Position numbers and translations under genes: made by a program
Part shown: positions 7,205-48,383 of the stretch, piece after piece
Layout of the letters: each line of letters begins with the position of its first letter
Position numbering within the stretch: position 1 is the stretch's first letter
Assembly (NCBI GenBank): GCA_038326775.1
Contig: JBBQKJ010000001.1
Location: 71,510-135,509 of the forward strand
Length of the DNA: 64,000 nt
Source of the DNA: Candidatus Geothermincolia bacterium
GTDB lineage: Bacteria; Actinomycetota; Geothermincolia; Fen-727; Anoxymicrobiaceae
Direction: 5' to 3'
Notes under the pieces: generated by a model
Databases searched by the model: none
What the model saw: only the letters and a program-made list of their open reading frames with translations
What the model was told of the DNA's origin: nothing

Positions 7205-7468
7205 CGGGCCGGCGTGGCTGTTCGCGCCATATTCGCCATCGTGCGGCGCCTCGCGGGACCGATCTGGACCGGTAAGGACAGAGTCCCGATCCCGGGCATT
7301 TCCGCATTGTCTTTTTCTTCTCTTAGTAATACTCTTGAGCCGCCGGAGCGCATCGCCGTTCGCATGCGTCGAGCGATGCCGGCAGTCAATGCCCGGAAAG
7401 CTGGTGCGGGCGGCATATTTCGAGGATTGTGCGGCGCTGAGTCAACAGAGAACAGGCGGTGATGATTG

Positions 7469-19927: not shown

Positions 19928-20089
19928 CAAACCTCATGAACGCACCCATGTTCGTCTCGGTGGAATGGGGCCTCCTGCTGCTGACCCCTCCTTAACGGTA
20001 ATTGAACTTCGCTCTGTGAACACGTATATAATCTGTCCCGGCGGATGGAAGCCCAGTTTGGCGGCTGTCCGAAAAGGCACACGAGGAGC

Positions 20090-21538
20090 ATGCTTGTGAG
20101 TGGCGCACCGGTATTGCCTCAAATGGAAAAGTCGATGCCACCGGGGCTTTTCAGCCGCATTCTCTCGTTTGCTCCCGCCCTCAAGGGCCTGCCGGCAACG
20201 TTGAGCAACGAGGAGGTGGAAGGCCTTCTCTTCTTCCTCCCCGGGGACACCGCGGACGCCTTGCGGTACCTGCTGAAGCCCGGTATCAGGGACGCGAGCC
20301 TCCTTTTCATAAACACCCTCCTTGGCTTCTTCGAGGAGGTCGCGGCCGCGAAGCGCGAGGGCAAAAAGGTGATCCTGACCGCGTTCAACTTCCCACCCGA
20401 GCTTATTCACGCGTTCAACAACGCGGCTGTGGTGACGAGCGAGGTCATCACCACGTTCGGGGTCATGACTCTTCAAGGCCAGGGCGAAAGATACTGGGAC
20501 TACGCCATCGGGCTGGGTTTGCCCGACCACCTGTGCTCGGCCAGCACAATAGAGGTGGGCTCAATGATCGCAGGGGGAGAGTACCCTCCCGACGCCATCA
20601 TCATCTCCGCGGCGGGAAGCTGCGACGCGAACGCCAAGGTCCACCAGTTCCTGGCCTATTACCTGGGCATCCCCGAGTTTGTTATAGACAAGCAGCCCGA
20701 CGACTCGGACAGGGGCCTCGAGGCTTTCAAGCGGGGCTACATGCGACTGGTAGCCGAGCTCGAGGAGTTTATCGGCGAGGAGCTCGACCTCGAGAACCTG
20801 CGCCGGGTCGCCGAGAACACCAACCGCTGCACCGAGCTCTACTACGAGCTCTGGGAGCTGCGAAAGCACACGCCCTGCCCGGTCCCCGGCATCTTCTCGC
20901 CTTTCACCTACGGCAACCGCTTCACCATGTGGGGCAGGGCCGAGGGCGTCGCGCTCCTCGATAAGTGCGTCGAGACAGCGAAGAGCAACCTCGAGGAAGG
21001 CCGGTTCCCGGTCCCGGATGAGAAGGCGCGCGTCTACTGGACTTACGTCAGCCATTACTTCGATGTCCTCAACTTCTTCGGGTGGATGGAGGAGCAGGGG
21101 ATCTCTTACATGGGCGACCTGGTCCTGCTGTGCTTCCCGCGCCCCATCTCGCTCGAGTCGAAGGAGTCCATCCTCAACGGCATGGCCGAGACGGCCTGGG
21201 ACATGTTCATGACCCGCCAGATGGGCTCGGAGATAATGTCGGCCCGGTGGGTGGAAGACCTCCTCTACATCATCAGGGAGCTCAAGGTCGACTGCTGCGT
21301 CTACTGCGGGCACCACTCGTGCAAACAGACATGGAGCGTCTTCTCACTGGTCAGCAACGAGGTGATGAAACGGGCGGGTGTGCCCACCCTGTGCCTCTAC
21401 GGCGATTCCTGGATAAAGAGGGTGACGCCGGTGACGATGCTCCAGGAAGATATCAAGAGGTTCATGGATAACGTGGTCGTCAAGGCAGGCAGGGGTCGCT
21501 GGTCGCGGCCGATCGCCGCGAGCCGGGGAGGTAAGTGA
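20090..21538 (+). CDS. 2-hydroxyacyl-CoA dehydratase / benzoyl-CoA reductase (HAD/BCR) family subunit, HgdAB/BcrB-like. Paralog of 42145..43641 and 43655..45058.
   Basis: Collinear similarity to the two downstream paralogs (LFDR...P..MS.EE..G..., K.ILT.FNFPPE.IHAF.N, GL.PDHLCSA..IE.GSM, ...CG.HSCKQTWSV...). GGAGG RBS before the ATG at 20090; the track ORF starts earlier, at 20045. Confidence 0.7.
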   Translation: MLVSGAPVLPQMEKSMPPGLFSRILSFAPALKGLPATLSNEEVEGLLFFLPGDTADALRYLLKPGIRDASLLFINTLLGFFEEVAAAKREGKKVILTAFNFPPELIHAFNNAAVVTSEVITTFGVMTLQGQGERYWDYAIGLGLPDHLCSASTIEVGSMIAGGEYPPDAIIISAAGSCDANAKVHQFLAYYLGIPEFVIDKQPDDSDRGLEAFKRGYMRLVAELEEFIGEELDLENLRRVAENTNRCTELYYELWELRKHTPCPVPGIFSPFTYGNRFTMWGRAEGVALLDKCVETAKSNLEEGRFPVPDEKARVYWTYVSHYFDVLNFFGWMEEQGISYMGDLVLLCFPRPISLESKESILNGMAETAWDMFMTRQMGSEIMSARWVEDLLYIIRELKVDCCVYCGHHSCKQTWSVFSLVSNEVMKRAGVPTLCLYGDSWIKRVTPVTMLQEDIKRFMDNVVVKAGRGRWSRPIAASRGGK

Positions 21539-21583: not shown

Positions 21584-22816
21584 ATGAGCAGCTTCGAGTT
21601 ATTCCCATGCTCCGGGCACAGGCTTGCCGACCTGGACAGGGCACTCGCGACCAGCTTGAACGAGATGCTGGAGAAAGAGGTCAGGAGCAGGCGGCTCGAG
21701 CTGAAAGAGGACTATGAGGGTTTGCTGAGACCGGCGCTCGAGCGGCTTCTGGCGGATGTCGGTCTGCAGAGGGTGTTCTGGGACGAGTCCCTCGGCGGAG
21801 AGGGTCACAACGGGCCCGAGGCGGCCTTCACCGTGGCCGCCGCCCTCGAGCAGGTCGGATGGGCCGACACCGGGCTCGCGTTTGTCGCGGCCCACAGCCT
21901 GGCTCTGCAGGCGTCGATGGCGGGTGTGGGTGGGGCTGGAGCAGCCGCCTGCTCGCGGTTCGCGCCGCTCTTCTGCGCAAACGGCCCGCCGGTATTGGTG
22001 GCGTTCGTCCTGCCTGGGTATTCCGAGGCCGACGGTCCGACCTGGAAGGGCAGGTCCCTGCAGGTCGAGTCGCGCAGGGAGGACAAGGAGCTGGTCCTGA
22101 AAGGCGAGATGGTTCGCCCGACCTGCTCGGGCGCCGACGCCGACCTCTTCGGGGTGCTCTGCGCCCTGGAAGGGGCCGAGGAGCCCGCTTTCGTGCTGGT
22201 CCCGGGTGACGCGGCCGGGCTCGTGCGGGGGCCCGTGTTCAAGAAGACCGGGCTCGCGGCCAGCCTGAATGCCGACCTCCGCTTTGATTCGGTCCGGGTG
22301 CCGGTGGAGAACCTCATATGGAGCTCGGAGGAAGGCACGCATCTGCTCCTCTCCTGGTACTACCTCGGACTGGCCGCTGCCGGGGCAGGCTCGCTGATCG
22401 CCAGCTACGAGATACTCAAGGAATGGGGGGACACCCGGGTCATAAAGGGGAAGGGGAGCATATTCAAGGAGAACCCTCTCACCGCCGCGTTGATGGGGAA
22501 AGTGGCGGGGGACGTGGCGCTGGCCCGCGCGCTAGCCTACTGGCTGGCCGGGTTGCTGGCCGAGCCGGACTCCTTTGTTTCGGACGGCATCCAGGGCGCC
22601 TGGACCATCGCTTCGATGGTCGCCCAGCGGATCTACGCCACGGCCGAGCAGTGCCTCCACAACACTATGGAGCTTATGGCATCAGCGGGGTACGCCAGTG
22701 AGTGGCAGCTCGAGCGTTACTGGCGCGACCTTAAGACCGTGCAGTGCTGCCTGGGCTCCCAGGAGCTCGCGAACATAGACGTGGCACGGCGTTTCTACGA
22801 CTGCAAGACGCTTTGA
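21584..22816 (+). CDS. Acyl-CoA dehydrogenase-fold protein, degenerate 'alpha-type' partner, 410 aa. Paralog of 35744..36976.
   Basis: AAGGGGAGGG RBS. ACAD-like C-terminal helices (RYWRDLKTVQ..LGSQEL...VAR). The middle-domain TEP..GSD substrate/FAD motif is replaced (VLPGYSEADG). Confidence 0.6.
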   Translation: MSSFELFPCSGHRLADLDRALATSLNEMLEKEVRSRRLELKEDYEGLLRPALERLLADVGLQRVFWDESLGGEGHNGPEAAFTVAAALEQVGWADTGLAFVAAHSLALQASMAGVGGAGAAACSRFAPLFCANGPPVLVAFVLPGYSEADGPTWKGRSLQVESRREDKELVLKGEMVRPTCSGADADLFGVLCALEGAEEPAFVLVPGDAAGLVRGPVFKKTGLAASLNADLRFDSVRVPVENLIWSSEEGTHLLLSWYYLGLAAAGAGSLIASYEILKEWGDTRVIKGKGSIFKENPLTAALMGKVAGDVALARALAYWLAGLLAEPDSFVSDGIQGAWTIASMVAQRIYATAEQCLHNTMELMASAGYASEWQLERYWRDLKTVQCCLGSQELANIDVARRFYDCKTL

Positions 22817-22832
22817 TGGAGGTGCGCGCGTT

Positions 22833-24098
22833 ATGAGGACCATTGACGATTTCACCCGGCCCCTGGAGTACATATCCCCGATTGACAAAACCCTGGGCAA
22901 CATATTTCGCGAGTGGGTGAACAATGAGGTCATTCCCAACCGGCGCCTCTACGACGAGGACTGGAAAGAGCACAAGCTCATCGGCGAGCCGTTCAAGAAA
23001 CTCCTTGTGGATTACGGCATCCAGCGAATCCTGTTCCCCGAGGACCTGGGCGGCTGGGGCCTCGGGCATTCCGGTGTGCTGTGCAGCGCTTCCCAGCGGA
23101 TGTTCGAGGAGATAGCGCGCGCGGACTCGGGGATGGCGGTAGCTTTCGGGGTCGTCTTCTGGCCCCTGGTGTTCATCACGGTGGAGCCCCACGTCAACCG
23201 TCGCCTCTGCGAGGAGTTCGCCCCGCTTTACATGCGGGACAAACCGGTCTTCGCCGCGCTTGCGATGACCGAGCCGCAGGGCGGCTCCGACATCGAGAAC
23301 GTGGATGTGTTGAAGGGCAGCACCATCGAGACCACCGCTGTCCGGGACAAAGACGAGTGGGTCATCAACGGCCACAAGCTCTGGGCCACCAACACCGGCG
23401 GCGTGGCGGAGCTGCTCGGTGTTGTGTGCACCACCAACCCGGGCTCGAGAGATCCCGACGACATCGCGGTGATATTCGTGCCTACCGACCTGCCCGGGGT
23501 CACCCAGGGGCCACCGTACGAGAAAGCGGGAATGGCCGCCGACAAGAACGGCGACGTCTGGTTCGAGGACGTTCGGGTGCCGCTGTGGTACCGCGCCTGC
23601 GGCCCGGGCGATGACGCGAAGTACTACAACGAGGTGGTCGCGCTCGGCCACATGGGGAGCATCGGCTTCGCCGTCGGGGTCATGATGAACGTGTATGAGA
23701 AGCTGCAGGAGTTCGTGAACCTGAAGCGCCACAGGGGCAAGCCGCTAAAGGAGAACGACGCCATCGCCGGGGTGCTCGCCGACTACGCCGCAACCCTTCA
23801 GGCACTCAGGATAATCGCCTACCAGGCCGCGCGGATGTGCGACCGGCAGGACCTCTACGGCCCGCGCTGGAGCCACGAGGTAGTGGCAAAGACGAGGGCC
23901 CTGCGTTACTTCGCGATGGACCGCTGCCTGGAGATGCTGGGCAAGGCTATGAACGTGATGGAAACGTACGGCGCCGACCGCGACTGGGATGTCGAGAAGC
24001 ACTGGCGCGACGTGAAGATGGTACAGCTCTGGCTCGGGGGCAAGCAGCTCTGTCAGATGGAGGTCGCCCGCTGGTTCTTCGAGTGCGAGACGCTCTAA
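22833..24098 (+). CDS. Acyl-CoA dehydrogenase family protein ('beta-type'), 421 aa. Paralog of 37031..38296.
   Basis: ACAD middle-domain motifs ALAMTEPQGGSD, EWVINGHKLWATN, PGVT.G....K.GMAAD...DV.FEDVRVP. At the usual YEG(T) catalytic-Glu position the sequence reads VQLWLGGKQL. Confidence 0.7.
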   Translation: MRTIDDFTRPLEYISPIDKTLGNIFREWVNNEVIPNRRLYDEDWKEHKLIGEPFKKLLVDYGIQRILFPEDLGGWGLGHSGVLCSASQRMFEEIARADSGMAVAFGVVFWPLVFITVEPHVNRRLCEEFAPLYMRDKPVFAALAMTEPQGGSDIENVDVLKGSTIETTAVRDKDEWVINGHKLWATNTGGVAELLGVVCTTNPGSRDPDDIAVIFVPTDLPGVTQGPPYEKAGMAADKNGDVWFEDVRVPLWYRACGPGDDAKYYNEVVALGHMGSIGFAVGVMMNVYEKLQEFVNLKRHRGKPLKENDAIAGVLADYAATLQALRIIAYQAARMCDRQDLYGPRWSHEVVAKTRALRYFAMDRCLEMLGKAMNVMETYGADRDWDVEKHWRDVKMVQLWLGGKQLCQMEVARWFFECETL

Positions 24099-24846: not shown

Positions 24847-24936
24847 CGTTGGTCTCCAATTCGTTATTGTTGCGACTCTATTCTAATCGTTGACCCGGCC
24901 ACGCGGCATCCCGGCGTGAGAAGCACGGCAACTCTA

Positions 24937-24973
24937 TTGACAAAGAACATACATATTGTATATTGTCGACAAT
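24937..24973 (+). promoter_or_regulatory. Putative sigma70-like promoter of the GRE operon (TTGACA at 24937-24942, 16-nt spacer, TATATT at 24959-24964) overlapped by two palindromic operator candidates: ATACATATTGTAT (24949-24961) and ATTGTCGACAAT (24962-24973).
   Basis: Hexamers and palindromes read from the sequence. Located in the divergent GntR/GRE intergenic region about 50 nt upstream of the GRE1 start. Confidence 0.4.
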
Positions 24974-25014
24974 TGAGGGGGAAGCTGGCACCTGGTGCAA
25001 AGGGGATGGTCTGT

Positions 25015-27681
25015 ATGAGCACCGCTACCCAAACTCTTAATTCCGAGAGGGTTTACCGCGTCATCCACATCAAGGTGGCAGAGGAGCCCAACGTGCACGT
25101 GCCCATCAAGCCCACGCTCGATTCCAGGGTAAAGATCTGCCTCGAAAGAGCGGAGCTGGTCACGGAATCCTACAGGCTCACCGAAGGCGAACCGTGGATA
25201 CTGCGCCGCGCCAAAGCCCTGGATCACCTGCTGCGCAATATGACCATTTACATCCTCGAGGGCGAAGAGATCGTGGGTAATTATTCCAGCACACCGGACA
25301 GTTTGCCCACCCATCCCGAATACTCCTACCGTTGGCTGGAGGACGCGCTTGAGACCGATTTCACGGACGCCCTGGATGAGGAAGGCAGGAGAAGACTGCG
25401 GCAAATCAATGAGTATTGGGCCGGACACAGCGTGGAGAGCAGGTTCCTCGAGACGGTGCCGGATGACTTGAAGCCATATACGGAATGGACGGGGGCCGTG
25501 GGAGGGACCTGGCTGTGGCCCCTGGGATGCATGGTGCTGAATTACGAAGGGGCCTTTGAAGAAGGGCTGAAGGGGTTGCTGGACGAGGTGCGGGAGCACA
25601 GCTCCAGGCTCGAGCCGGATGACCGGGATTATCAGGAGAAGCACGAGTTCTATATGGCTGCGGAGATCTGCGCTGAGGCGTTAATGGCCTTCGCCAGCCG
25701 TTTTGCCGCTCTGGCTGAGGAAAAGGCGGTCGGGGCTGAGGGCGAGCAGAAGGAGAGGTACGAGAGGATCGCCCACATCTGTTCGCGCATCCCGGAAAAC
25801 CCTCCCGAGAGTTTCCATGAAGCACTGCAGGCCTTCTGGTTCTACCACCTCGTGACCACGCAGATCGACTGGAACAGCGTGGGTCTGGGGCAGCGTTTCG
25901 ACCAGCTCTTCTGGCCATATTACGAGAAGGACAAAATGGAGAAACGCATCACCTACGAACGGGCGGTGGAGCTCTTTGAACACCTTTGGATAAAACTGGA
26001 TGACCTGGGGCAGATCAATCCCCAGATCTCCTCAATGCTCCAGGTAGGTGGCACCAAGTTTCAGAGCGCAACCCTTGGCGGGGTTGACAGGTACGGCAAC
26101 GACGCTACTAACGAGCTTTCATTCGCCATGATCGACGCTACAATGAATATCCGGACGCTGCAGCCCAGCCTCAGCGTTCGCTATCACGATAATATTGATC
26201 CGAGGATTATCGACAGGGCGGTGGACTGCATCGCCACGGGCATAGGCATGCCGGCTATATTCAATGACAACGCGGTCATCCCCTGGTCCCTGTACAAAGC
26301 GCTGGAACACCTCTATCCCGAATCGGGAAAGCTGTTCGGAGTGGGCTGCCTTCCGATACTTCAGAAGACCCATCATGCAGCGAAAAAGGCCATATCGCAC
26401 CTCCCGAAGTCATGGGAGGAAGGCCTGGAGAGCTACTTCCATAACTGGCCCTATAAGTTGTGTACCGCCGGCGGCAGGGCAGGGGACGCCTTACGCTATC
26501 TTACGAAACGTGCCCGGATATTCGATGCCGAGGAGATCATGTACCTTGCCCGAAACTGGTCAAACACGGCCTGTGTAGGGCCGGGATTTACGGGAATGGC
26601 CTCCCTCCAGGGCACGCTGGCAACCCTCATCACCGCCGCCATCCTCAATTACGCAAAGTGCCTGGAGTATGTCCTCTACCAGGGTGTGGAGCCGACCACC
26701 GGCGAGCAGTTGGGGGCAAGAACCCCAGACCCGCGCACTTTCAAGGCCTACGATGAGTTTCTGGATGCCTTCCTCTCTCAGATCAAGTACGCGCTGGAGC
26801 AAAACGCGAAAGTGTACGAGATAAGCGAGAAGCTCTACCAGGAGATGATGCCCCGTCCCCTCGCCTCCATGCTGGTGGGAAGGAAGACATCCATAGAGCG
26901 GGGCAAGGACGCGACCCGCAAGGGGGACGCCGCCTACAGCGAAGTCTTCCTGGCGGGCGGCGTGAACGCCGCGGACTCTCTGGCGGTCATAAAGAAACTC
27001 GTCTGCGAGGAGAAGTCGGTCAGCATCGACGAATTGATCAGAGCCTGTCAGTCAGACTGGGCGGGATGCGAGGACCTGCGCGGCAAGTGCCTGGCCGTTC
27101 CCAAGTTCGGCAACGATGACGACTCCGTGGACCTGGTCCTGGAGGATATGTACCGTAAGTCTGTAAAGGTCTTCAATGGAGTGAAGGACCATTTCGGCAA
27201 GCCCTTCGTACCGGAGGCGACCCTGGCCGGAGGGTACTTCGCCACCGGGCTTTCCACGGGCGCCACTCCTGACGGCCGCCGGGCCGCCGAGACCCTTTCG
27301 GACGGGCAGCTCTCGCCCATGCACGGTCGGGACTTGAGCGGTCCGACCGCCGTTCTCAAGTCATGCTCCAAGGTGAACCCCACGCGCTGCGGCAACCAGC
27401 TGGTCAACCAGAAGTTCCTGCCATCCGCACTCAAAGCCGCGAACAAGAAGCTGTTCGCCGATTACCTCAAGACCTGGTCCGAGTTCGGCAACTGGCATAT
27501 CCAGTTCAACTGTATCGACGCGGACACCCTGAGGGAAGCACGCGAGTATCCGGAAAGGCACAAGAACCTCATCGTGCGCGTTGCAGGGTACAGCGCTTTC
27601 TTCACCGAGCTTAATCCCGAGATACAAGCGGATATCATCAGGCGTTCCGAGCAGGACCTGGGTTCCTCGAGGTGTTGTTGA
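25015..27681 (+). CDS. Glycyl radical enzyme paralog 1 (GRE1), 888 aa, unknown substrate specificity.
   Basis: C-terminal glycyl-radical motif IVRVAGYSAFF plus TPDGR...SDGQLSPMHGRD...GPTAV. Putative thiyl Cys loop NTACVGPG about 338 residues before the Gly. Start chosen at MSTATQTLNSE by alignment with GRE3; RBS AAGGGGATGG. Confidence 0.9.
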   Translation: MSTATQTLNSERVYRVIHIKVAEEPNVHVPIKPTLDSRVKICLERAELVTESYRLTEGEPWILRRAKALDHLLRNMTIYILEGEEIVGNYSSTPDSLPTHPEYSYRWLEDALETDFTDALDEEGRRRLRQINEYWAGHSVESRFLETVPDDLKPYTEWTGAVGGTWLWPLGCMVLNYEGAFEEGLKGLLDEVREHSSRLEPDDRDYQEKHEFYMAAEICAEALMAFASRFAALAEEKAVGAEGEQKERYERIAHICSRIPENPPESFHEALQAFWFYHLVTTQIDWNSVGLGQRFDQLFWPYYEKDKMEKRITYERAVELFEHLWIKLDDLGQINPQISSMLQVGGTKFQSATLGGVDRYGNDATNELSFAMIDATMNIRTLQPSLSVRYHDNIDPRIIDRAVDCIATGIGMPAIFNDNAVIPWSLYKALEHLYPESGKLFGVGCLPILQKTHHAAKKAISHLPKSWEEGLESYFHNWPYKLCTAGGRAGDALRYLTKRARIFDAEEIMYLARNWSNTACVGPGFTGMASLQGTLATLITAAILNYAKCLEYVLYQGVEPTTGEQLGARTPDPRTFKAYDEFLDAFLSQIKYALEQNAKVYEISEKLYQEMMPRPLASMLVGRKTSIERGKDATRKGDAAYSEVFLAGGVNAADSLAVIKKLVCEEKSVSIDELIRACQSDWAGCEDLRGKCLAVPKFGNDDDSVDLVLEDMYRKSVKVFNGVKDHFGKPFVPEATLAGGYFATGLSTGATPDGRRAAETLSDGQLSPMHGRDLSGPTAVLKSCSKVNPTRCGNQLVNQKFLPSALKAANKKLFADYLKTWSEFGNWHIQFNCIDADTLREAREYPERHKNLIVRVAGYSAFFTELNPEIQADIIRRSEQDLGSSRCC

Positions 27682-27695
27682 GAGGGGTGGGTAGA

Positions 27696-30359
27696 ATGAG
27701 CGAGACGGCGAGAAGATTGAATGAAGAGAGGCTGATCAAGGCGGTCCAGATCACCGACGCGGAGAGCCCGTCGGTGAGCATGCCGGTCAAAGTGAAGCTC
27801 GATCCCAACGTTAAGATCTGCCTGGAGAGGGCGGAGCTGGTGACGGAGTCTTACCGGCGCACCGAGGGTGAGCCTTGGATAATCCGGCGCGCCAGGGCCC
27901 TGGACCACCAACTCCGGAACATGACCATTTATATACTCGAGGGCGAACAGATAGTGGGCAACTATGCCAGCACGCCGGACAGCCTGCCCACCTACCCGGA
28001 GATCTCCTGCCGCTGGTTGGACGAAGAGCTCGACGACGCCTACACACACGCGCTTGACGAGGAAGGAAAAAGAAGGCTGCGGGAGATACACCAGTACTGG
28101 TACGATGTGAACGTCGAGGGGACTATCCTCAGGGACCTGCCGGAGGAGCTGGAAGATTTCATCAGTTCCAGCAAGACCACGGCCATGTTCACCATGTTCT
28201 GGCCCGCGGGCGCCTTCCCCCTGGACCTTAAGGACTGGGTCTTTCCGCGTGGCTTGAACGGTATCCTGGAAGAGGTGGGCGAGCGGCGCGCCGCGTTGTC
28301 GAAAGACGACGTGGATTTCCAGGAGAAAGAAGATTTCTATAACGCTGCCGAGATAAGCACCAGGGCCGTGATTGCCTTCGCCCGTCGCTACTCCGCGCTG
28401 GCCTGGGAGAAGGCGGCATCGGCCGGCGGGAAGGCCAGGGAGGATTACCTGAAGGTGGCCGAGGTCTGCGCGCGCGTGCCAGAGCATCCCCCCCGGACCT
28501 TCCATGAAGCCCTGCAAACTTTCTTCTTCTGCCACCTGGTAACCGCCCAGATAGACTGGTACGGCCTGGGCCTTGGACAACGCTTCGACCAGCTCTTCTG
28601 GCCCTGCTACGCACGCGAAAAGGAAGAAGGAAGCATCACCTACGACCGCGCCGTGGAGCTGCTGGAGTTTCTCTGGATAAAACTGGACGACCTGGGCCAG
28701 ATCAATCCCGTCAGCACTTCCATCTACCAGGCGGGAGGGACCAAGTTCCAGAACGTATCCGTGGGCGGCGTGGACGAGAACGGCGAGGACGCGAGCAATG
28801 AGCTCTCCCTGGCGGTCCTGGACGCCACCATCAATATCCGTACTCCCCAGCCCGGCGTCTGTGTGTTATACCACGACAGGATCGACCCCAGGTTGCTCGA
28901 CAAGGCCATAGATTGCATCGCCTCGGGGATGGGGCAGCCCGCACTTTTCAATAACGATGTGTGTGTAAAGTGGCACCTTAACCTGGCGTTGGATATCCTC
29001 TACCCGGATTCGGGGGGATTCATCGGCGTCCCCTACCTTGGTCTGGTCCAGAAGACGGACAACCTCGTGAGGAAGGTTGTCTCTCACCTCCCGGCATCCC
29101 TGCGTAAAAAGATAGAGGAAAGATACGACGAATGGCCTTACGCAGTATATACGGGAGGCGGAAAGCCGGGTGACTTGTTGCGGGCGGCCTTGAAGAAGGT
29201 TCACCTCTGGGACGCTCAGAAGGGGTTGGCCCTGGCCCGGGGGTGGGCTCCCACCTCCTGCGTGGGAGGGGGATTGCAGGGCAAGGTGACCATACAGGGT
29301 ACCCTCACCTCAATACTCATCTTCACCGTATTGGATTTCCTGAAGTGCTTCGAGTACGTCATGTACCAGGGGGTGGAGCCTGAGACCGGCGAGCTGGTGG
29401 CGGTCCCCACCCCGGACCCCGGTTGCTTCCAGACCTACGACGAGTTCCTCGACGCCTACCTGGAGCAGGTCGAGTTCCAGGTGGACAGGGCCAACCGGGC
29501 TTACCAGATCGCCGAGATGACTTACGAGGAGCACATGCCCCGTCCTTTCGCCTCGGCCTGCACCGAGACCTGCGTCGCGAGGGGCAGGGACGGTATGCGG
29601 CGGGGAGACGCCTCCATCAGCGAGATCTTCAGTATGGGCAGCGTGAACGCCGCCGAATCCCTGGCCGCGGTGAAAAAACTGGTCTTCGATGATGGAGCGG
29701 TGACCATGGAGGAGCTGCTGAAGGCTTGCGACTCCAACTGGGAAGGCTATGAGGACGTGCACCGCAAATGCCTGGAGGTCCCCAAGTTCGGCAACGACGA
29801 CGACTACGTCGATCATATCCTGGACGACCTCTATCGCAAGGCCCAGGCCCTGGTCTACAGCCACAAGGACCATTGGGGCAACGGGCTGCACCTGGAGTCG
29901 TCCCTGGCGGCCGGTTATTACGTGGGCGGGCTCACCTGCTCTGCCACCCCGGACGGAAGGGTAAAGGGGGAGACCGTCTCCGACGGACAGCTCTCGCCAA
30001 TGCACGGCAGAGACATAAACGGCCCCACCGCGGTGCTCAAGTCCTGCTCGAAGGTGGACCCCCTCAAGAGCTGGAACCAGCTCTGCAATCAGAAGATAAA
30101 CCCCACCTTCCTCAAGGGAAAGAACAAGAGGCTTTTCGCTGATTACCTGCGTACCTGGCTCGGGTTCGGCAACTGGCATATCCAGTTTAACTGCCAGGAC
30201 GCGGAGAGCCTCAGGGATGCCATGGTTTATCCGGAGAGGCACCGGGATCTGATCGTGCGCGTAGCCGGATACAGCGCCTTCTTCATAGACCTGGCGCCCG
30301 GCTTGCAGCAGGATATCATCAGGAGAACGGAGCAGAGCCTGAAGGATACGGTTCACTGA
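27696..30359 (+). CDS. Glycyl radical enzyme paralog 2 (GRE2), 887 aa, the most divergent of the three.
   Basis: RVAGYSAFF Gly motif, TPDGR block, Cys loop TSCVGGG. Start at MSETARRL with RBS GAGGGGTGGG. Confidence 0.9.
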   Translation: MSETARRLNEERLIKAVQITDAESPSVSMPVKVKLDPNVKICLERAELVTESYRRTEGEPWIIRRARALDHQLRNMTIYILEGEQIVGNYASTPDSLPTYPEISCRWLDEELDDAYTHALDEEGKRRLREIHQYWYDVNVEGTILRDLPEELEDFISSSKTTAMFTMFWPAGAFPLDLKDWVFPRGLNGILEEVGERRAALSKDDVDFQEKEDFYNAAEISTRAVIAFARRYSALAWEKAASAGGKAREDYLKVAEVCARVPEHPPRTFHEALQTFFFCHLVTAQIDWYGLGLGQRFDQLFWPCYAREKEEGSITYDRAVELLEFLWIKLDDLGQINPVSTSIYQAGGTKFQNVSVGGVDENGEDASNELSLAVLDATINIRTPQPGVCVLYHDRIDPRLLDKAIDCIASGMGQPALFNNDVCVKWHLNLALDILYPDSGGFIGVPYLGLVQKTDNLVRKVVSHLPASLRKKIEERYDEWPYAVYTGGGKPGDLLRAALKKVHLWDAQKGLALARGWAPTSCVGGGLQGKVTIQGTLTSILIFTVLDFLKCFEYVMYQGVEPETGELVAVPTPDPGCFQTYDEFLDAYLEQVEFQVDRANRAYQIAEMTYEEHMPRPFASACTETCVARGRDGMRRGDASISEIFSMGSVNAAESLAAVKKLVFDDGAVTMEELLKACDSNWEGYEDVHRKCLEVPKFGNDDDYVDHILDDLYRKAQALVYSHKDHWGNGLHLESSLAAGYYVGGLTCSATPDGRVKGETVSDGQLSPMHGRDINGPTAVLKSCSKVDPLKSWNQLCNQKINPTFLKGKNKRLFADYLRTWLGFGNWHIQFNCQDAESLRDAMVYPERHRDLIVRVAGYSAFFIDLAPGLQQDIIRRTEQSLKDTVH

Positions 30360-30434
30360 GGCGCCAGCATTCGGGTATTTTGGTTGAGGGCAGGACCAGA
30401 ATCGGCCTGCTGATTTGTCAAGGGGGTAGTTTCG

Positions 30435-33110
30435 ATGAGCGTCATCACACAAACTCTTAATTCCGAGAGGCTTTATCGCGTCATCCACATCAGGACGGCA
30501 GACAATCCCAACGTGCATAGACCGATAGACTGTGTCCTGGATCCCAGGGTGAAGATCTGCCTGGAGAGAGCAGAACTGGTGACTGAGTCCTACATGCGTA
30601 CCGAGGGTGAACCCTGGATTATGCGCAGAGCCAAGGCGCTGGACCACCTGTTGCGCAACATGACGATTTACATACTGGAGGGAGAAGAGATCGTCGGCAA
30701 TTATTCCAGTTCACCGGACAGCCTGCCTACGCATCCGGAATTCTCCTACCGCTGGCTGGAGAAAGCCCTCGAGGATGAGTTCAGGCACGCCCTGGACGAG
30801 GAGGGCAAGAGAAGGCTCAGGGAGATCAACAGATACTGGCAGGACGACAGCGTTGAGAGCAGGTTCCTTGAGGCTGCGCTGTCCTTTCCTGAGGAACTCA
30901 AGCCTTTTACCGGCTGGACGGGTGCGGTCGGAGCGGCCTGGGAATGGCCACTGGGTTGTATGGTACTCAACTACGAGCTTGCCTTCGAGGAAGGGCTGAA
31001 CGGGATGCTGGCCGAGGTGCGCAGATACCGCTCCATGCTTTCTGCAAAAGACCCGGAATATAAGGAGAAGCAGGAATTCTACCAGGCGGCGGAGATCTGC
31101 GCCGAGGCTGTGATGGCTTTCGCCAGGCGTTTTGCCGCCCTGGCCGAGGAGAAGGCAACCGGGGCTGAGGGCGAGCAGAAACAAAGATATGAGCGGATTG
31201 CCCGTATCTGCTCACGCGTGCCCGATAACCCCCCGGAGAACTTCCATGAGGCCCTGCAGGCTTTCTGGTTCTACCACCTCATAACCAGCCAGATCGATTG
31301 GAATAGCGTAGGGCTGGGCCAGCGTTTCGATCAACTCTTCTGGCCCTACTACGAGAAGGACAAGTTTGAGGAGAGGATAACCTATGAAGGTGCGGTAGAA
31401 CTCTTCGAGCACCTGTGGATAAAGCTGGACGACCTTGGCCAGATCAACCCTTGGAAGCACGCTATGCTCCAGGTGGGAGGCACCAAGTTCCAGAGCGCCA
31501 CCCTGGGCGGTGTTGACAGGTACGGCAACGACGCCACCAACGAACTCTCCTTCGCCATGATCGACGCCACCATGAACATCCGCACCCTGCAACCCAGCCT
31601 CAGCCTGCGCTATCACGAAAACATCGACCCCCGCATCGTCGAAAAGGCGGTGGACTGCATCTCCACCGGTATCGGCATGCCGGCCATCTTCAACGATAAG
31701 CCGGTCATATCCTGGATGCTCAATGCCGCAATGGAACATCTCTATCCTGAGAGTGGAAAGATCTTCGGGGTGGCCTGTATGCCAGTCCTCAAGAAGGTGC
31801 ACGACCAGGCAAAGAAGGCCATCTCATTTCTGCCCAAGTCCTGGGAGGAAGGCCTGGAGAGCTACTTCCACAACTGGCCCTACAAGCTTTGCACCGCAGG
31901 TGGCAGGGCAGGGGACGCCCTTCGCGGCATTACCAAGCACCTGGGCATCTTCGACGCCGACGAGGTCCTCTACTTCGCTCGCAATTGGTCCAACACCGCC
32001 TGCGTGGGGCCGGGATTTACCGGCATGGCCGCTGTCCAGGGTAGCCTCGCCACTATTATCTGCGCCGCCGTCTTCAACTACGCCAAGTGCCTGGAATACG
32101 TCCTTTATCAAGGCGTGGAACCGACTACCGGTGAACAGCTGGGAGCGCGGACCCTCGACCCGCGTACCCTCAAAACCTATGACGAGTTCCTGGACGCCTT
32201 CCTGGCGCAGGTGAAGTACGCCCTGGAGCAGATCGCCAAGGTCTACGAGATAAGCGAGAAGCTCTTCGAGGAGATGATGCCACGCCCCCTGCCTTCCATG
32301 CTGGTAGGAAGAAAGAGTTCCATCATACGCGGCAAGGACGCCACCCGTAAGGGCGACCTCGGCTACAGCGAGGTCTTCCTGGCCGGCTCCGTGAACACGG
32401 CCGATTCCCTGGCGGTGATCAAGAGACTGGTCTATGAGGAGAAGACGGTGACCATGAGTGAGATCATCGAGGCCTCCAGGTCCGACTGGGCGGGGAATGA
32501 GGACCTGCGCCGCAAGTGCCTGGCGGTACCCAAGTTCGGCAACGACGACGACTACGTGGACCTCGTCCTGGAGGAAATGTACCGCAAGACCGTTAAGGTG
32601 TTCAAGGGGGTGAAGGACCACTTCGGAAATCACTTAGTGCCGGAAGCCACCATGGCGGGAGGCTATTTCGCTATCGGCGTCTCCACCGGAGCCACGCCCG
32701 ACGGCCGCCGGGCGCGCGAAACCCTCTCGGACGGTCAGCTCTCGCCCATGCACGGCCGTGACGTGAAGGGACCCACGGCGGTGCTAAAGTCCTGTTCGAA
32801 GGTGGATCCCACGCGCTGCGGCAACCAACTGGTCAACCAGAAGTTCCTGCCCTCTGCACTCAAAGGCGAGAACAAGAAGCTGTTCGCCGATTACCTCAAG
32901 ACCTGGTCCGAGTTCGGCAACTGGCACATCCAGTTCAACTGCATCGACGTGGATACATTGCGAGAAGCACAGGCGCATCCCGAGAGCCACGGGAACCTCA
33001 TCGTACGCGTGGCCGGATACAGCGCTTTCTTCACCGAGCTCAATCCCGAGATACAAGCGGATATCATCAGGCGTTCAGATCAGGATCTGGGCAAGTCCAG
33101 ACGCTGTTGA
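30435..33110 (+). CDS. Glycyl radical enzyme paralog 3 (GRE3), 891 aa, about 80 percent identical to GRE1.
   Basis: RVAGYSAFF Gly motif, Cys loop NTACVGPG. Long near-identical stretches to GRE1 at protein and DNA level. Confidence 0.9.
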   Translation: MSVITQTLNSERLYRVIHIRTADNPNVHRPIDCVLDPRVKICLERAELVTESYMRTEGEPWIMRRAKALDHLLRNMTIYILEGEEIVGNYSSSPDSLPTHPEFSYRWLEKALEDEFRHALDEEGKRRLREINRYWQDDSVESRFLEAALSFPEELKPFTGWTGAVGAAWEWPLGCMVLNYELAFEEGLNGMLAEVRRYRSMLSAKDPEYKEKQEFYQAAEICAEAVMAFARRFAALAEEKATGAEGEQKQRYERIARICSRVPDNPPENFHEALQAFWFYHLITSQIDWNSVGLGQRFDQLFWPYYEKDKFEERITYEGAVELFEHLWIKLDDLGQINPWKHAMLQVGGTKFQSATLGGVDRYGNDATNELSFAMIDATMNIRTLQPSLSLRYHENIDPRIVEKAVDCISTGIGMPAIFNDKPVISWMLNAAMEHLYPESGKIFGVACMPVLKKVHDQAKKAISFLPKSWEEGLESYFHNWPYKLCTAGGRAGDALRGITKHLGIFDADEVLYFARNWSNTACVGPGFTGMAAVQGSLATIICAAVFNYAKCLEYVLYQGVEPTTGEQLGARTLDPRTLKTYDEFLDAFLAQVKYALEQIAKVYEISEKLFEEMMPRPLPSMLVGRKSSIIRGKDATRKGDLGYSEVFLAGSVNTADSLAVIKRLVYEEKTVTMSEIIEASRSDWAGNEDLRRKCLAVPKFGNDDDYVDLVLEEMYRKTVKVFKGVKDHFGNHLVPEATMAGGYFAIGVSTGATPDGRRARETLSDGQLSPMHGRDVKGPTAVLKSCSKVDPTRCGNQLVNQKFLPSALKGENKKLFADYLKTWSEFGNWHIQFNCIDVDTLREAQAHPESHGNLIVRVAGYSAFFTELNPEIQADIIRRSDQDLGKSRRC

Positions 33111-33126
33111 AGGAGCTTTCCGACAC

Positions 33127-34155
33127 ATGGCTCTTGATAGAATCAATTCCTGGAAGAAAAAAGCGGTCGCGTTAGCCAGGAATTCTGGCGGGGGGCGGCT
33201 GAACATGGACCTCGATATTCAGGGGCTGGTCTTCAATATCCAAAAATTCAGCATCGACGACGGCCCGGGAATCCGGACCACCGTCTTCATGAAGGGATGT
33301 CCCTTCAGATGCCCGTGGTGTTCCAACCCAGAGTCCATCAACCCCTATCCCGAGGTCATCACGAAATTCGACGCTCTCTGCAAAGACTGCGGTCGCTGCC
33401 AGGATTCCTGCGAGATTGGGGCTATTAAGGTGATCGAGAGCCTGCTACCCGGAGACGACCGGCCGCGGGAGCGCACCCGCGACCTCGACCGCCATCTGTG
33501 CAACAGATGTATGAAATGCGTGGAAGCCTGCCCGACCGGCGCCTTGAGTAGCGTGGGAGAGGCCAAGACTGTAAGGGAAGTTCTCGAGGTTGTGGAACAG
33601 GACCGCCCGTTCTACGAAAACAGCGGTGGGGGAGTGACCCTTTCTGGCGGAGAGCCTCTCATGCAGCCCGATTTCGCTCTGGCGCTGCTGAGGGAAAGCA
33701 AGAGGAGGGGTCTTCATACGGCCCTGGACACATGCGGTCAAGCGCCAACCGATTCCCTGGAGGCCCTGCTGCCCTTCCTGGACCTGGTCCTCTACGACGT
33801 AAAACACACTGACCCCACAGCCCACGAGAAGGCGGTGGGCTCGGATAACCTGACCATTCTCGAGAACCTGCGATTCCTCAGCGGCAAGGTCGCCATCTGG
33901 CTCCGCGTTCCGTTGATACCCGGCTTCAACGATGACCTCGAGACCCTGCGGGATATCGTGGAGCTGGCCGGGGAAGTCTGCATCGAAAGATTGTTTTTCC
34001 TGCCCTACCACCGATGGGGATCTGGCAAATATCCCGGTTTGGGAAGGGAGTACGAGCTCGCGAATACAGGCGAGATCTCGGCGAACAAGCTGGAAACGGT
34101 GAAGGAGCTTTGTGGCTCATCGGGAATCGCCGCCTGCGAGATCGCCAGCGAATGA
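33127..34155 (+). CDS. Glycyl radical enzyme activating enzyme (radical SAM) with an inserted ferredoxin-like two-cluster domain, 342 aa. An alternative start at 33205 (MDLDIQGLVFNIQKFS...) is possible.
   Basis: CPFRCPWCSNPE radical-SAM CxxxCxxC immediately after FSIDDGPGIRTTVF. CKDCGRCQDSC and CNRCMKCVEAC extra clusters. GGEPL SAM motif. Confidence 0.9.
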   Translation: MALDRINSWKKKAVALARNSGGGRLNMDLDIQGLVFNIQKFSIDDGPGIRTTVFMKGCPFRCPWCSNPESINPYPEVITKFDALCKDCGRCQDSCEIGAIKVIESLLPGDDRPRERTRDLDRHLCNRCMKCVEACPTGALSSVGEAKTVREVLEVVEQDRPFYENSGGGVTLSGGEPLMQPDFALALLRESKRRGLHTALDTCGQAPTDSLEALLPFLDLVLYDVKHTDPTAHEKAVGSDNLTILENLRFLSGKVAIWLRVPLIPGFNDDLETLRDIVELAGEVCIERLFFLPYHRWGSGKYPGLGREYELANTGEISANKLETVKELCGSSGIAACEIASE

Positions 34156-34165
34156 TTCTGCCGAA

Positions 34166-34762
34166 ATGGATAGAGGAGAGAGCCAGTTGGGTAAGAAAGA
34201 GGAGTTGATCGAGGAGATCCTCCAGGTGGAGTGGGAGATGTTCACTTCGGTCCGCGCCAGGGGAAGAAGTGCCCTCTGCCAGGAAGATCCCGATTCCTTC
34301 CGGATCATCAGAGCGGCCAACTTCATGACCTGGTCAGATGACACCCTTACCAGCTACCTGGACGATGTAAAGACGGCCGGGAGCCTGGGCAGGAACCTGA
34401 TGACCGAGAAATACGCCCGCATGGAGGGCATCATCCCACCGCTCAACCCGGCGGTCCAACCGATTATTGACAAAATCGTAGAACAGGAATGCCTGTGGGC
34501 GGAGGATTTCTCGCGGAGCAACCCGAGCGCAAGATTAGCCCGTCCCATATATGCTCGCGACGAATCACCTGGCGTCGTCTCCTCCGAGACCTACTCCAGG
34601 GCAGAGCTGGAAACGTATTCCGCCCGCACCCTCGAACAGTACTACTCGGATGTCATGGGCATGTTGTCCGGGGGTGAGAACCGCATCGAGTTCGCGGTTC
34701 GCTACATGCGGGAGCTGGCATCGATTAGAAAGAGGAGCGGGCGTGTTCGGTTACGTTCCTGA
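34166..34762 (+). CDS. Conserved hypothetical protein, about 199 aa, immediately downstream of the activase. No Fe-S motif. Possibly DUF4125-like.
   Basis: ORF in operon position with the GRE/activase genes. Family assignment from memory only; low certainty. Confidence 0.4.
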   Translation: MDRGESQLGKKEELIEEILQVEWEMFTSVRARGRSALCQEDPDSFRIIRAANFMTWSDDTLTSYLDDVKTAGSLGRNLMTEKYARMEGIIPPLNPAVQPIIDKIVEQECLWAEDFSRSNPSARLARPIYARDESPGVVSSETYSRAELETYSARTLEQYYSDVMGMLSGGENRIEFAVRYMRELASIRKRSGRVRLRS

Positions 34763-34876
34763 CGCAAAGACTTGAGAAAGTGCAAGCTGCGGAGGTCGAG
34801 CAGGATAAGCACCCTACCGGTGGTTGATTGTTTCTCCGGCCTGTTGACAGTTGCTGGAAACCATATTTACAATGGC

Positions 34877-34900
34877 GCGCATAGGGAACATACATACATG
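34877..34900. promoter_or_regulatory. 24-bp palindrome GGAACATACAT-AC-ATGTATGTTCC (11-bp arms), about 40 bp upstream of the TetR gene. Candidate TetR operator.
   Basis: Perfect inverted arms read from the sequence. The ATACAT/ATGTAT half-sites echo the GRE-promoter motif. Confidence 0.45.
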
Positions 34901-34938
34901 TATGTTCCATCCTCAACCTCAATGCACGATTGGTTGAA

Positions 34939-35674
34939 CATGAGTTCTGTCGAGAAGCGGGACCAGATTATCGCGGCCGGCGTCCGCGTATTCCCGAAGC
35001 TCGGCTATCACGGGACGACCGTCGAGGACGTCATTCGCGAAGCCGGGGTCGCGCGGGCGACTTTCTACGCTTACTTCGCGGACAAGCGCGGGCTTTTCAT
35101 CGAGATCGCCACGGGAAGAACCACACAGATCGTGCACATTCTCACTGTCGGTGTCGACTCGGTCATCGAACAATATGAAACCCTGGGGGCTGAAGCGCTC
35201 GACCAGGAAACGTTCCAGGCGCCTCTCTCCGACCTGGTGGAAGCCATATTCCGATTCGTGAGGAGTAACCGCGGGGTAACGAAGATCTTCTTCCACGACA
35301 TGGTCGGCGCGGACAAAGAGTTCACCCGCATCTTCAACGACTACCAGGAGGCGCTGATCAACCAGATGGAGCGCTTGATGGAATACGGAGTCGGCCATGG
35401 GGTGCTCAAGAAGACCGACTGCAGGAAGGCCGCGGAGTTCATAATAAGCGGGCACATGCACCTGGCCAGGAGCTTCAGCGCCGGCACCGGCAGGTACGAT
35501 GTCGAGGAGGTCGCGCGCCAGTTCATCGACTATCAGTTCAACGGTCTTATGGAGAGAAACGACCCCCCTTCAGCGGACGGCAAGAAGAAAAGCGCGGCGG
35601 CAGGGGCAGGAGCACGGGGCCAGGAGCGCCCAGGGGGCATCAACACCGGCGGAGCCCCGGAAACCCGCCGTTAG
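34939..35674 (+). CDS. TetR-family transcriptional regulator with a low-complexity basic/Ala-Gly C-terminal tail.
   Basis: N-terminal HTH: GYHGTTVEDVIREAGVARATFYAYFADKRGLF (canonical TetR_N). Start at MSSVEKRDQ; an ATG at 34921 is also possible. Confidence 0.8.
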
Positions 35675-35743
35675 AATAGAGAAGTAGAGAGTAGGCGTAC
35701 CGGTTGGTCGAAGCGTCGATAAGAGAAGCCTTGAGGTGGTGCT

Positions 35744-36976: not shown

Positions 36977-37030
36977 AGCCGGGACCGACCGCCGGGCTTT
37001 GCTCGGACGGCTCTCTAGCAGGAGGAGCGA

Positions 37031-38296: not shown

Positions 38297-38339
38297 GTTC
38301 GCGAATGCCGGGTTGGAGACGATTCAAGGCGGTGAGGTG

Positions 38340-39643: not shown

Positions 39644-39680
39644 TAGGCAATAGTGCCTTATCCATGTGAGGTGATGCGAG

Positions 39681-40967: not shown

Positions 40968-41002
40968 CGGTAGAGTCTAACCTGAGTTTTGAGGTGATTT
41001 AA

Positions 41003-43641: not shown

Positions 43642-43654
43642 GAGAGGAGAAGCA

Positions 43655-45058: not shown

Positions 45059-45059
45059 A

Positions 45060-45090
45060 GTGGGGTCAAGCCACTTTCTTGTTCTCAGCA
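45060..45090. repeat. Short partial copy of the palindromic repeat tail (GTGGGGTCAAGCCACTTTCTTG, similar to GGGGTCAGGTCACTTTCTTGC).
   Basis: About 19/21 identity by eye. Intergenic between the HAD/BCR subunit and the activator genes. Confidence 0.35.
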
Positions 45091-45141
45091 CTACCGCGAC
45101 AGCGACCGAAGCGCTATGACCAAAAAAGAAAGGGAGATTGA

Positions 45142-45960: not shown

Positions 45961-45965
45961 AGACA

Positions 45966-46739: not shown

Positions 46740-46785
46740 GAGACCGCTTTTGGGAGCTTTCAGCCCCACGAAGCATTGAGACGAC

Positions 46786-48245: not shown

Positions 48246-48383
48246 TTCATCTTGGGGTCAGACACCCTGACATGAATTTTCAGCGGCATCCGGATGTCTC
48301 GGATACAAATTCATGTCAGGGTACCTGACCCCAGGGTGAGAATGCACAAAAGTGACCTGACCCCAATGTTGCATTATGGATGA
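48246..48383. repeat. Palindromic intergenic repeat element, copy B (about 138 bp). Its tail reaches into the annotated start of the metallophosphoesterase gene.
   Basis: Alignment with copy A: ATTCAT..TGGGGTCAGACACC(T/C)TGACATGAATTTT ... inverted arm ... AAAGTGACCTGACCCCAATGTT(A/G)CAT...ATAGCG. Confidence 0.6.

Follow-up and report, generated by a model that had tools for sequence, protein, structure and literature searches.

What does an acyl-CoA dehydrogenase do when its flavin site appears to be divided between two genes and neither product carries the usual catalytic glutamate? The question is raised by a 64,000-nucleotide stretch of DNA from a Candidatus Geothermincolia bacterium (the window; contig JBBQKJ010000001.1, positions 71,510 to 135,509), in which four open reading frames (ORFs) on the + strand encode proteins with the fold of acyl-CoA dehydrogenases (ACADs). 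The four ORFs form two adjoining pairs, and we refer to the degenerate member of each pair as A and to the better-preserved member as B. Pair 1 consists of A1 (21584–22816, 410 aa) and B1 (22833–24098, 421 aa), and pair 2 of A2 (35744–36976, 410 aa, 44% identical to A1) and B2 (37031–38296, 421 aa, 68% identical to B1). The answer that we favor, with a probability of roughly 60%, is that A and B form an ACAD-fold heteromer that lacks a catalytic base and acts as the flavoprotein partner in an operon resembling those of benzoyl-CoA reductases (BCRs).

A flavin site apparently shared by A and B

The A and B genes of each pair are separated by only 16 nt (pair 1) and 54 nt (pair 2), with a Shine-Dalgarno sequence in each gap. 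The sequence GGGGAGGG directly precedes the start ATG of A1 at 21584, and the 410-aa gene is called identically on two independent contigs. Promoter and terminator scans, which ran at background level and carry little weight, revealed no terminator-like site between A and B of either pair. The short gaps, the ribosome-binding sites and the lack of an intervening terminator-like site suggest that A and B of each pair are co-transcribed. The window holds no further ACAD-like gene, and in particular no third one with a catalytic Glu.

The N-terminal, middle and C-terminal ACAD domains are detected by Pfam in all four proteins, with the middle domain falling below the gathering cut-off of 33.3 bits in A1 (20.2) and A2 (16.6). 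AlphaFold2 monomer models of A1 (pLDDT 89.7) and B1 (pLDDT 88.1) both show the complete three-domain fold, with an N-terminal helical, a middle beta and a C-terminal helical domain. In Foldseek comparisons the B1 model reaches TM-scores of 0.85–0.89 against ACAD structures, and A1 and B1 together give 0.8–0.89 against IBD, MCAD, IVD and Ch1DH. A and B are 27–32% identical to one another, and the cysteines of neither protein cluster into an Fe-S motif. Two features of B1 are set apart from the general fold. An 8-residue insertion specific to B follows directly after TEPQGGSD (residues 153–164, window positions 23289–23324); its Asp153, Ile154, Glu155 and Asn156 are invariant, and it has low pLDDT in the monomer model. 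The extreme C-terminus (residues 418–421, positions 24084–24095) reads C-x-T-L and is nearly invariant in B; A1 also ends in CKTL.

To place these proteins among their relatives, we used 79 related loci, every one from a metagenome-assembled genome (MAG). The 88 B-type and 57 A-type sequences from these loci were aligned with MAFFT to human MCAD, for which we used a sequence 100% identical to PDB 1ege. A set of 240 metagenome proteins (120 A and 120 B homologues, with generic source names throughout) served as an independent check. An earlier note on this DNA had described each pair as one subunit with canonical middle-domain motifs and one in which these are eroded, and had proposed alignment to MCAD as a check. 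This description is borne out: the motifs TEPQGGSD, GHKLWATN and GMAAD are present in B1 and the string VLPGYSEADG in A1, the middle domain of A is the one that falls below the Pfam cut-off, and the MCAD alignment leaves the FAD contacts intact only in B and the Glu in neither member of a pair.

The asymmetry extends to both families. In B the flavin-pocket motifs take the forms TEPQGG[SA]D and GHKLW[PA]TN, and the MCAD flavin contacts Thr136, Glu137, Pro138, Gly141, Asp143, Trp166, Thr168 and Asn169 are all retained. The subset that forms the isoalloxazine pocket (Thr136, Glu137-Pro138, Gly141, Trp166 and Thr168) is preserved in 85–87 of the 88 B-family sequences, including B1 and B2, but not in A1 and A2; in the A family 55 of 57 sequences have Pro in place of Thr136, 55 of 57 have Arg in place of Trp166, and the TEPxxGSD loop is missing. 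The metagenome proteins follow the same division, with TEPQGG in 118 of 120 B homologues and TEP in none of 120 A homologues, all of which carry [SG][SA]GY instead.

Loss of the pocket does not mean that A has been released from selection, because 44 columns are invariant across 58 A-family sequences that are 44–89% identical. Mean conservation is 0.73 in B and 0.54 in A, and at the cis flavin loop the values are 0.89 and 0.40. Most telling was an unbiased conservation scan, in which A proved to be the more conserved subunit solely at two segments of the C-terminal domain, corresponding to MCAD 277–285 and 344–358. There A is invariant for R-V-I-K-G...F-K-x-N-P-L and M-E-x-M-x-S-A-G-Y, whereas B drifts. 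Relatives of B that are encoded by single genes in Desulfobacteraceae MAGs keep the cis motifs together with an A-like LMGSxGY trans motif, as would be expected of homomers.

Where a locus leaves space for a partner, A adjoins B in 61 of 66 cases, across several phyla and in both gene orders. Judged from sequence, this adjacency and the asymmetric cis and trans conservation indicate that adjoining genes divide the FAD site into isoalloxazine and ADP-ribose portions. The assembly would probably be an alpha2beta2 tetramer with two FAD molecules, in which B would hold the isoalloxazine ring and the acyl-thioester pocket, and A, having lost its own pocket, would complete the FAD site of B in trans through its two invariant C-terminal-domain segments. 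This would give each A–B dimer a single FAD and a single active site, a layout resembling that of the alpha2beta2 ChsE enzymes.

Catalytic base positions and Glu-bearing relatives of B

The earlier note had also reported that all four proteins lack the Glu of the C-terminal YEG(T) motif, and this holds in every alignment. The strings CLG, WLGG, YVVPE and WMGG occur there as quoted, and HMMER alignments to solved ACADs set LWLGG of B1 and CCLGS of A1 opposite IYEGT. The position of MCAD Glu376 is occupied by Leu401 in B1, Met401 in B2, Leu390 in A1 and Val in A2 (HMMER to 2dvl and 3pfd; MAFFT to human MCAD). Among the 88 B-family sequences this residue is Met in 49, Leu in 16 and Glu in 18, and among the 57 of the A family it is Leu in 48, Val in 4, Met in 3 and Ile in 2. 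The metagenome B homologues divide similarly into LWMGG (71), Leu- or Ile-type (29) and [LM]VEGS (18 of 120).

The further proposal that the base sits elsewhere, as in IVD and LCAD, did not survive. The helix-G position used by those enzymes (MCAD Thr255) is Gly272 in B1 and B2, Tyr259 in A1 and Tyr in A2; it is Gly in 82 of 88 B-family sequences and Leu, Tyr or Phe in the A family. A shift of the alignment by one residue brings in no Glu either, as B position 273 (MCAD Arg256) is Asn, Gln, Leu or His. None of A1, B1, A2 and B2 therefore has a catalytic Glu at the MCAD-type or the IVD/LCAD-type position, and a base of the latter type was rejected.

A third position is known from Ch1DH, a cyclohexenoyl-CoA dehydrogenase of the 1,4-dehydrogenating type, which has no Glu at the two canonical positions (Thr363 and Asn241) and uses Asp91 as its base (PMC9293079). 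When the B profile is aligned to 7p98, Thr363 falls opposite residue 401 (Leu or Met) and Asn241 opposite residues 272/273 (Gly, then Asn, His, Gln or Leu), so that B resembles Ch1DH in having lost the Glu at both places. Ch1DH is also among the best sequence and fold matches of A and B, and it acts on products of ring reduction. However, it is a homotetramer that is only ∼22% identical, and its base lies in an invariant Asp91-Gly92 within a broken helix of the N-terminal domain; Asp91 falls opposite Trp110 of B, a residue that is Trp in 85 of 88 sequences. A Ch1DH-type base was thus also rejected. In the window, the predicted active site of B is lined by Trp110, Gly272, Trp400 and Leu/Met401, with no acid at any of the three known base positions, and B is therefore unlikely to perform a classical C-alpha deprotonation.

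The alternative that survives best is that A–B is an ordinary alpha2beta2 acyl-CoA dehydrogenase whose base has moved, either to a new carboxylate in B or to one contributed by A, and which carries out standard alpha,beta-dehydrogenation of an unusual acyl-CoA. We consider this unlikely, but it is the alternative to be taken most seriously. The base has moved before within the superfamily, as between MCAD, IVD/LCAD and Ch1DH (PMC9293079), and B offers family-invariant residues in the insertion after TEPQGGSD (Asp153, Glu155 and Asn156) as well as Glu267 on helix G. A further residue, Glu349, shows a reciprocal pattern: it is Glu in 89% of B sequences with Leu or Met at position 401 and Gly in 86% of those of VEGS type. 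The acid would nevertheless have to lie outside all three documented positions. Glu267, at a distance of five residues from the active-site position on helix G, should by helix geometry point off that face. Glu349 lies at the start of a long helix in the C-terminal domain, behind a 10-residue family-specific insertion, in a region that is not known to line the active site.

The Glu-bearing members of the B family are informative in their own right. The 18 sequences with Glu at position 401 comprise 14 with Q[LM]VEGSK from Actinomycetota, three with QL[YF]EGGK from Deltaproteobacteria and one that is more distant, and in a neighbour-joining tree they nest among the W[LM]GG sequences. Some loci carry a Glu-type copy (B') together with A and a Leu-type B, in the order B'–A–B (our loci L001, L003, L016, L025 and L034) or B'–B–A (L011), and in others B' is paired with A (L007–L010, L013 and L037). 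Both arrangements stand ahead of the same downstream genes. The state of residue 401 is thus being switched inside one functional context, whether Glu has been lost repeatedly or regained. VEGS-type proteins are ∼70% identical to B1 and differ from the Leu/Met type consistently at five positions (44, 144, 349, 400 and 403). Because paralogues this close, with so few consistent differences, have the full catalytic set, B presumably still binds a CoA thioester.

The single-gene relatives mentioned above are of the Met type (SLWMGGR) and occur without A in loci L067 and L069–L075 (for example L070 4052–9503 and L075 8961–14851). Their conserved context consists of an amino-acid permease, an ACAD-like gene and a URO-D-family protein, followed by an aldehyde:ferredoxin oxidoreductase. 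The occurrence of the Met-type residue in proteins that have no A partner suggests that loss of the base may predate the heteromer.

A reductase-like operon around the pair

The genes that accompany A and B point to a partner of the BCR/2-hydroxyacyl-CoA-dehydratase (HAD) type and not to the degradation of steroid side chains. A tblastn comparison of the window proteins with the 79 loci defined a conserved block. Besides A–B it contains between one and four helical proteins, a single BzdN-like HGD-D protein, up to three (at least one) of the BzdO/HadB-like kind, a pair of BcrAD ATPases, and two proteins that resemble CdhC and the ATPase CooC. We regard the A–B pair as a constant part of this self-contained operon. 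The 38 loci with at least 8 kb of downstream sequence include HGD-D genes in 32 cases, BcrAD in 27, CdhC-like genes in 19 and CooC-like genes in 14. On four long contigs (up to 1.47 Mb) the same 10–11 genes are flanked by unrelated sequence, often with a TetR gene in the lead. In the window the full block accompanies pair 2 and spans 34772–48245.

All genes of this block lie on the + strand. It opens with a TetR-family regulator (34772–35674; Pfam TetR_N and TetR_C_24) directly upstream of pair 2, and a TetR gene also precedes A in loci L054, L068, L072, L083 and L085. B2 is followed by a helical protein of a module-specific family (38277–39044) that has no Pfam or NCBIfam hit and has homologues downstream of B in most loci. 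Next come a second copy of the same family (39050–39643, start uncertain) and a third member of 428 aa assigned by homology to it (39681–40967). All the helical proteins belong to one family with forms of ∼240 and ∼560 aa and two to four copies per operon (also present in L082–L085), for which we found no Pfam, NCBIfam or solved relatives (best profile E-value 0.038). The ORFs at 39050–39643 and 39681–40967 together correspond to the ∼560-aa protein of other modules, and they are separated either by a genuine split or by a frameshift.

The reductase-like genes follow. The first encodes a BzdN/BcrC-like HGD-D protein (41003–42148; Pfam E 7e-88), a candidate carrier of a double-cubane [8Fe-9S] cluster that scores 194 bits against the double_cubane model, below its cut-off. 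Two divergent BzdO/HadB-like HGD-D subunits come next, the first of ‘alpha’ type (42145–43641 and 43655–45058; both by Pfam and NCBIfam), and then two BcrAD-type ATPases. One of these is a BzdQ-like member of the BcrAD/BadFG type (45142–45960; Pfam E 7e-59, TIGR00241 231 bits, above cut-off), and the other was recognized by Pfam, with its start set at MGIDIG (45966–46739). A further HGD-D gene lies directly upstream of pair 1 (20045–21538, + strand; PF06050, E 5e-49) and encodes a BzdO/HadB-like ‘alpha’ subunit of the BCR/HAD family. Its product has weak NCBIfam matches to double_cubane, HadB and BzdO and is 53–55% identical to the alpha-type subunit of modules from Syntrophomonadaceae. The window thus contains three divergent alpha paralogues but only one BzdN-like protein and one ATPase pair, suggesting that a single electron-activating unit serves exchangeable substrate subunits.

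The block closes with two genes whose products have the appearance of a pair devoted to a metal centre or to maturation. One encodes a 238-aa protein homologous to no more than the middle domain of acetyl-CoA synthase (ACS; CdhC/AcsB) (46786–47502; PF03598, E 3e-12), which matches positions 306–478 of the 705 in the NCBIfam model; 18 of 20 homologues share its C-terminal DCxxC[ED]Yxx[VI]C motif. The end of this gene runs into the beginning of the other, which encodes a CooC/MinD-type P-loop ATPase (47502–48245) with GKGGVGKT and a C[FY]C motif that is present in 15 of 15 homologues. We take these two motifs to be features of CooC metallochaperones. A terminator-like hairpin follows at 48252–48270, in a scan that ran at background level.

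The order of an N-like subunit, an O-like subunit and two BcrAD ATPases, together with the HGD-D and BcrAD domains, resembles the BZD-type class I benzoyl-CoA reductase BzdNOPQ, and the BzdN-like subunit matches both the BzdN and the double-cubane models (for background see PMC11971306). The assignment holds at the level of families (HGD-D, BcrAD_BadFG and TIGR00241) and not of equivalogs: the scores for BzdN (182.5 versus a cut-off of 453.8), BzdO (at most 34 versus 448.6) and BzdQ (192.8 versus 380.2) all fall short. Unlike in BzdNOPQ, as many as three highly divergent O-like paralogues occur, and the ACAD-like pair, the helical family, the ACS-domain protein and the CooC-like ATPase are not among the BCR operon components described in PMC11971306. 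The literature that we searched contains no description of this gene combination. BCR operons are not known to include any of these four additional components. A report on Chloroflexi (PMC5736913) was considered as a precedent and set aside, since it describes an ordinary bzdNOPQ benzoate pathway.

In the mechanism that we propose, the ATP-driven Fe-S enzyme would reduce a CoA thioester that is otherwise hard to reduce. The A–B heteromer would then exchange hydride or electrons, in either direction, with the conjugated CoA ester so formed, and protonation would proceed without a Glu376-type base. A role in hydride or electron transfer is the most economical reading because Ch1DH provides a precedent for it in the benzoyl-CoA pathway. 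We suggest more tentatively, at somewhat less than even odds, that the pair marks an undescribed and horizontally spread system of uncultured anaerobes for a reductive or radical transformation of CoA thioesters for which no enzyme is currently known. Its components would be an [Fe-S] reductase of Birch type that is driven by ATP and has divergent substrate subunits, the base-less heteromeric flavoprotein, the helical scaffold proteins and the metal-centre maturation pair.

Several points weigh against the assignment of A–B as a base-less flavoprotein partner. The subunit stoichiometry, the FAD content and the substrate are all things that we infer. The part given to the two invariant segments of A depends on equating them with MCAD residues 281–292 (Arg281 to Gln292) and 349–355 (Gln349 to Gly355), which touch the ADP-ribose of the FAD in the neighboring subunit, and on the published role of the ChsE beta subunit in binding ADP-ribose. 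Glu155 in the B-specific insertion, Glu267 and Glu349 are candidates for a relocated acid. VEGS paralogues, which make up 18 of 120 metagenome and 18 of 88 genome B sequences if all Glu-bearing forms are counted in the latter, can fill the slot of B in otherwise identical modules, which suggests that a base may matter in some modules and that the Glu-less form could differ in role. Pair 1 has no full module of its own, its single adjoining HGD-D gene being the upstream one at 20045–21538. Finally, the module was found to contain neither an ETF nor a ferredoxin gene whose product might act as redox partner to the FAD.

The missing ferredoxin or ETF gene speaks in favor of a second alternative, in which A–B converts no substrate and instead acts as a flavin-based electron relay or docking subunit that gives electrons to the BcrAD/HGD-D Fe-S enzyme or accepts them from it. 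A relay of this kind could account for the strict retention of the flavin pocket in a protein without a base, and the conserved surface-type insertion beside the flavin loop, with its low pLDDT in the monomer, is what would be expected of a partner-binding loop. However, ACAD flavins as a rule sit at much higher potentials than BcrAD-type [4Fe-4S] clusters and would be poor donors. The acyl-CoA pocket also seems to have been retained, given that the VEGS paralogues combine a complete catalytic site with ∼70% identity to B1 and only five consistent differences. We regard a pure relay as quite unlikely, and return below to the base-less heteromer.

Origin, distribution and wider surroundings

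The earlier note had likened the pairs to the ChsE/FadE heteromers of actinobacterial steroid side-chain catabolism. In ChsE, the alpha subunit holds the isoalloxazine, the Glu and the substrate, and the beta subunit touches the ADP-ribose of FAD (PMC11153573); in alpha2beta2 enzymes of this type each alpha–beta dimer contains a single FAD and a single active site (PMC8399759). The comparison with ChsE4–ChsE5/FadE26–27, ChsE1–ChsE2/FadE28–29, IpdE1–E2 and Scd1AB holds for the use of two adjoining ACAD-fold genes and for the division of the FAD site, with a predicted one FAD per heterodimer. It fails in three respects: the flavin-bearing B1 and B2 have no catalytic Glu, which appears only in VEGS and YEGG paralogues elsewhere; the hosts are strict anaerobes; and the setting is a BCR/HAD-type Fe-S enzyme and not steroid beta-oxidation.

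The part of the comparison that implied common descent also gave way. Mutual scores of A and B are 154–190 bits, whereas solved ACADs give no more than 102 and 61 bits. The best 60 sequence-profile hits and the best 50 fold hits include no chain named ChsE or FadE26–29. The top profile and fold matches are short- and medium-chain homotetrameric ACADs (3pfd, 7p98, 2dvl, 1rx0, 1ukw and MCAD). Because A and B are each other’s closest relatives, the heteromer appears to have arisen separately from ChsE/FadE and from PimCD. To judge from the hit lists and this mutual closeness, the likeness to ChsE is convergent, that is, analogous and not homologous. The A–B heteromer probably arose by duplication inside its own family, as an archaeal A-type subunit is equally near to both subunits. 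This protein, from a Methanobacteriota MAG (L038 6858–8147), has the LPEY and LRP motifs and resembles an intermediate in the evolution of the A lineage.

PimC and PimD of Rhodopseudomonas palustris resemble the pair in being a two-gene ACAD tied to anaerobic aromatic or dicarboxylate catabolism, but the scores (44.7 and 33.3 bits) are far below the cut-offs of TIGR03204 and TIGR03203 (623.85 and 652.7), and several homomeric ACAD models score higher. From the naphthalene pathway, ThnO and ThnT were considered and then rejected as equivalents, as ThnO is a homotetramer and both are active dehydrogenases. The best NCBIfam match is cyclohexane-1-carbonyl-CoA dehydrogenase, with 131.6 bits against a cut-off of 650, and no equivalog is approached.

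Among these models is the one on which a third alternative would be built, namely that the ACAD scaffold has been turned to non-redox chemistry on a CoA thioester (isomerisation, elimination or hydrolysis). The precedent would be 3-sulfinopropionyl-CoA desulfinase, which, as cited in PMC9293079, is a Glu-less member of the superfamily that does not dehydrogenate and in which FAD is structural. B1 and B2 do match its model (SulpropCoADesulf, NF042439), but only at 74.5 and 52.2 bits against a cut-off of 600, and it is not their best hit. The loci also have no sulfur-metabolism context, and the link to an ATP-driven reductase points to redox chemistry, so that we consider this improbable. Least probable of all is that there is no heteromer, with A and B forming separate homotetramers and A being a flavin-free binding or regulatory protein that shares the operon of B: the complex does rest on sequence inference, and A alone has a complete and confidently predicted ACAD fold, but the adjacency across several phyla and in both gene orders, the greater conservation of A only at putative partner-FAD segments where B is relaxed, and the retention of both motif sets by single-gene relatives all argue against it.

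If the base-less heteromer is correct, its implications extend beyond this locus. Heteromeric ACADs have so far been known mainly from aerobic steroid catabolism, and an independent heteromer in strict anaerobes would make a FAD site split between paralogues a recurrent solution. The Glu-less ACADs cited in PMC9293079 are cyclohexenoyl-CoA dehydrogenase and 3-sulfinopropionyl-CoA desulfinase only. With most B members lacking all three base positions and Glu-bearing paralogues nested among them, the family would be a natural experiment on switching ACAD chemistry. Heteromeric ACADs and Glu-less ACADs are each known already; an independently evolved, Glu-less heteromer in such an operon was not found in the literature searched. 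Together with the BZD-type reductase-like enzyme, the ACS-domain protein and the CooC-like ATPase to which it is constantly linked, the pair marks out a clonable operon of 10 genes. The occurrence of this operon in syntrophs and subsurface Actinomycetota could bring to light new ATP-dependent reactions of CoA esters in habitats that are methanogenic and rich in hydrocarbons. The operon as a whole would be the larger prize, although we put forward its identity as a new ATP-dependent CoA-ester-transforming system with less confidence than the heteromer itself.

The closest genome matches to B1 (77–79% identity) come from MAGs of Geothermincolia and other Actinomycetota (Ca. Solincola and Ca. Geothermincola). 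Further hosts belong to the Syntrophomonadaceae, the Syntrophaceae (Smithella and others) and additional Deltaproteobacteria (Phox-21 among them), and one is a Methanobacteriota MAG. An exhaustive search with the A-family profile returned 100 representatives at E ≤ 1e-30 among 1.84 billion clusters at 50% identity; the A family is therefore small and discrete.

The two pairs of the window are separated by a GntR gene, genes for three glycyl-radical enzymes and their activase, a DUF4125 gene and the TetR gene. The glycyl-radical enzymes are tandem paralogues of 921, 895 and 891 aa (within 24916–34762, which also includes the activase at 33127–34155 and the DUF4125 protein). They belong to the PFL2/glycerol-dehydratase family, fall below every NCBIfam cut-off (best subfamily 524–548 versus 678 bits) and have B12-independent glycerol dehydratase as their best solved relative (E 5e-118). 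A functional link to the pairs was considered and dropped: in none of the other loci compared did we see such enzymes close to the pairs, and we treat them as local. Further upstream, an acyl-CoA ligase (4216–5793, − strand) scores above the PRK06187 subfamily cut-off, and a protein of the HpaB (4-hydroxyphenylacetate hydroxylase) family (7466–8908, + strand) lies far under the equivalog cut-offs. These two proteins may supply or process CoA esters.

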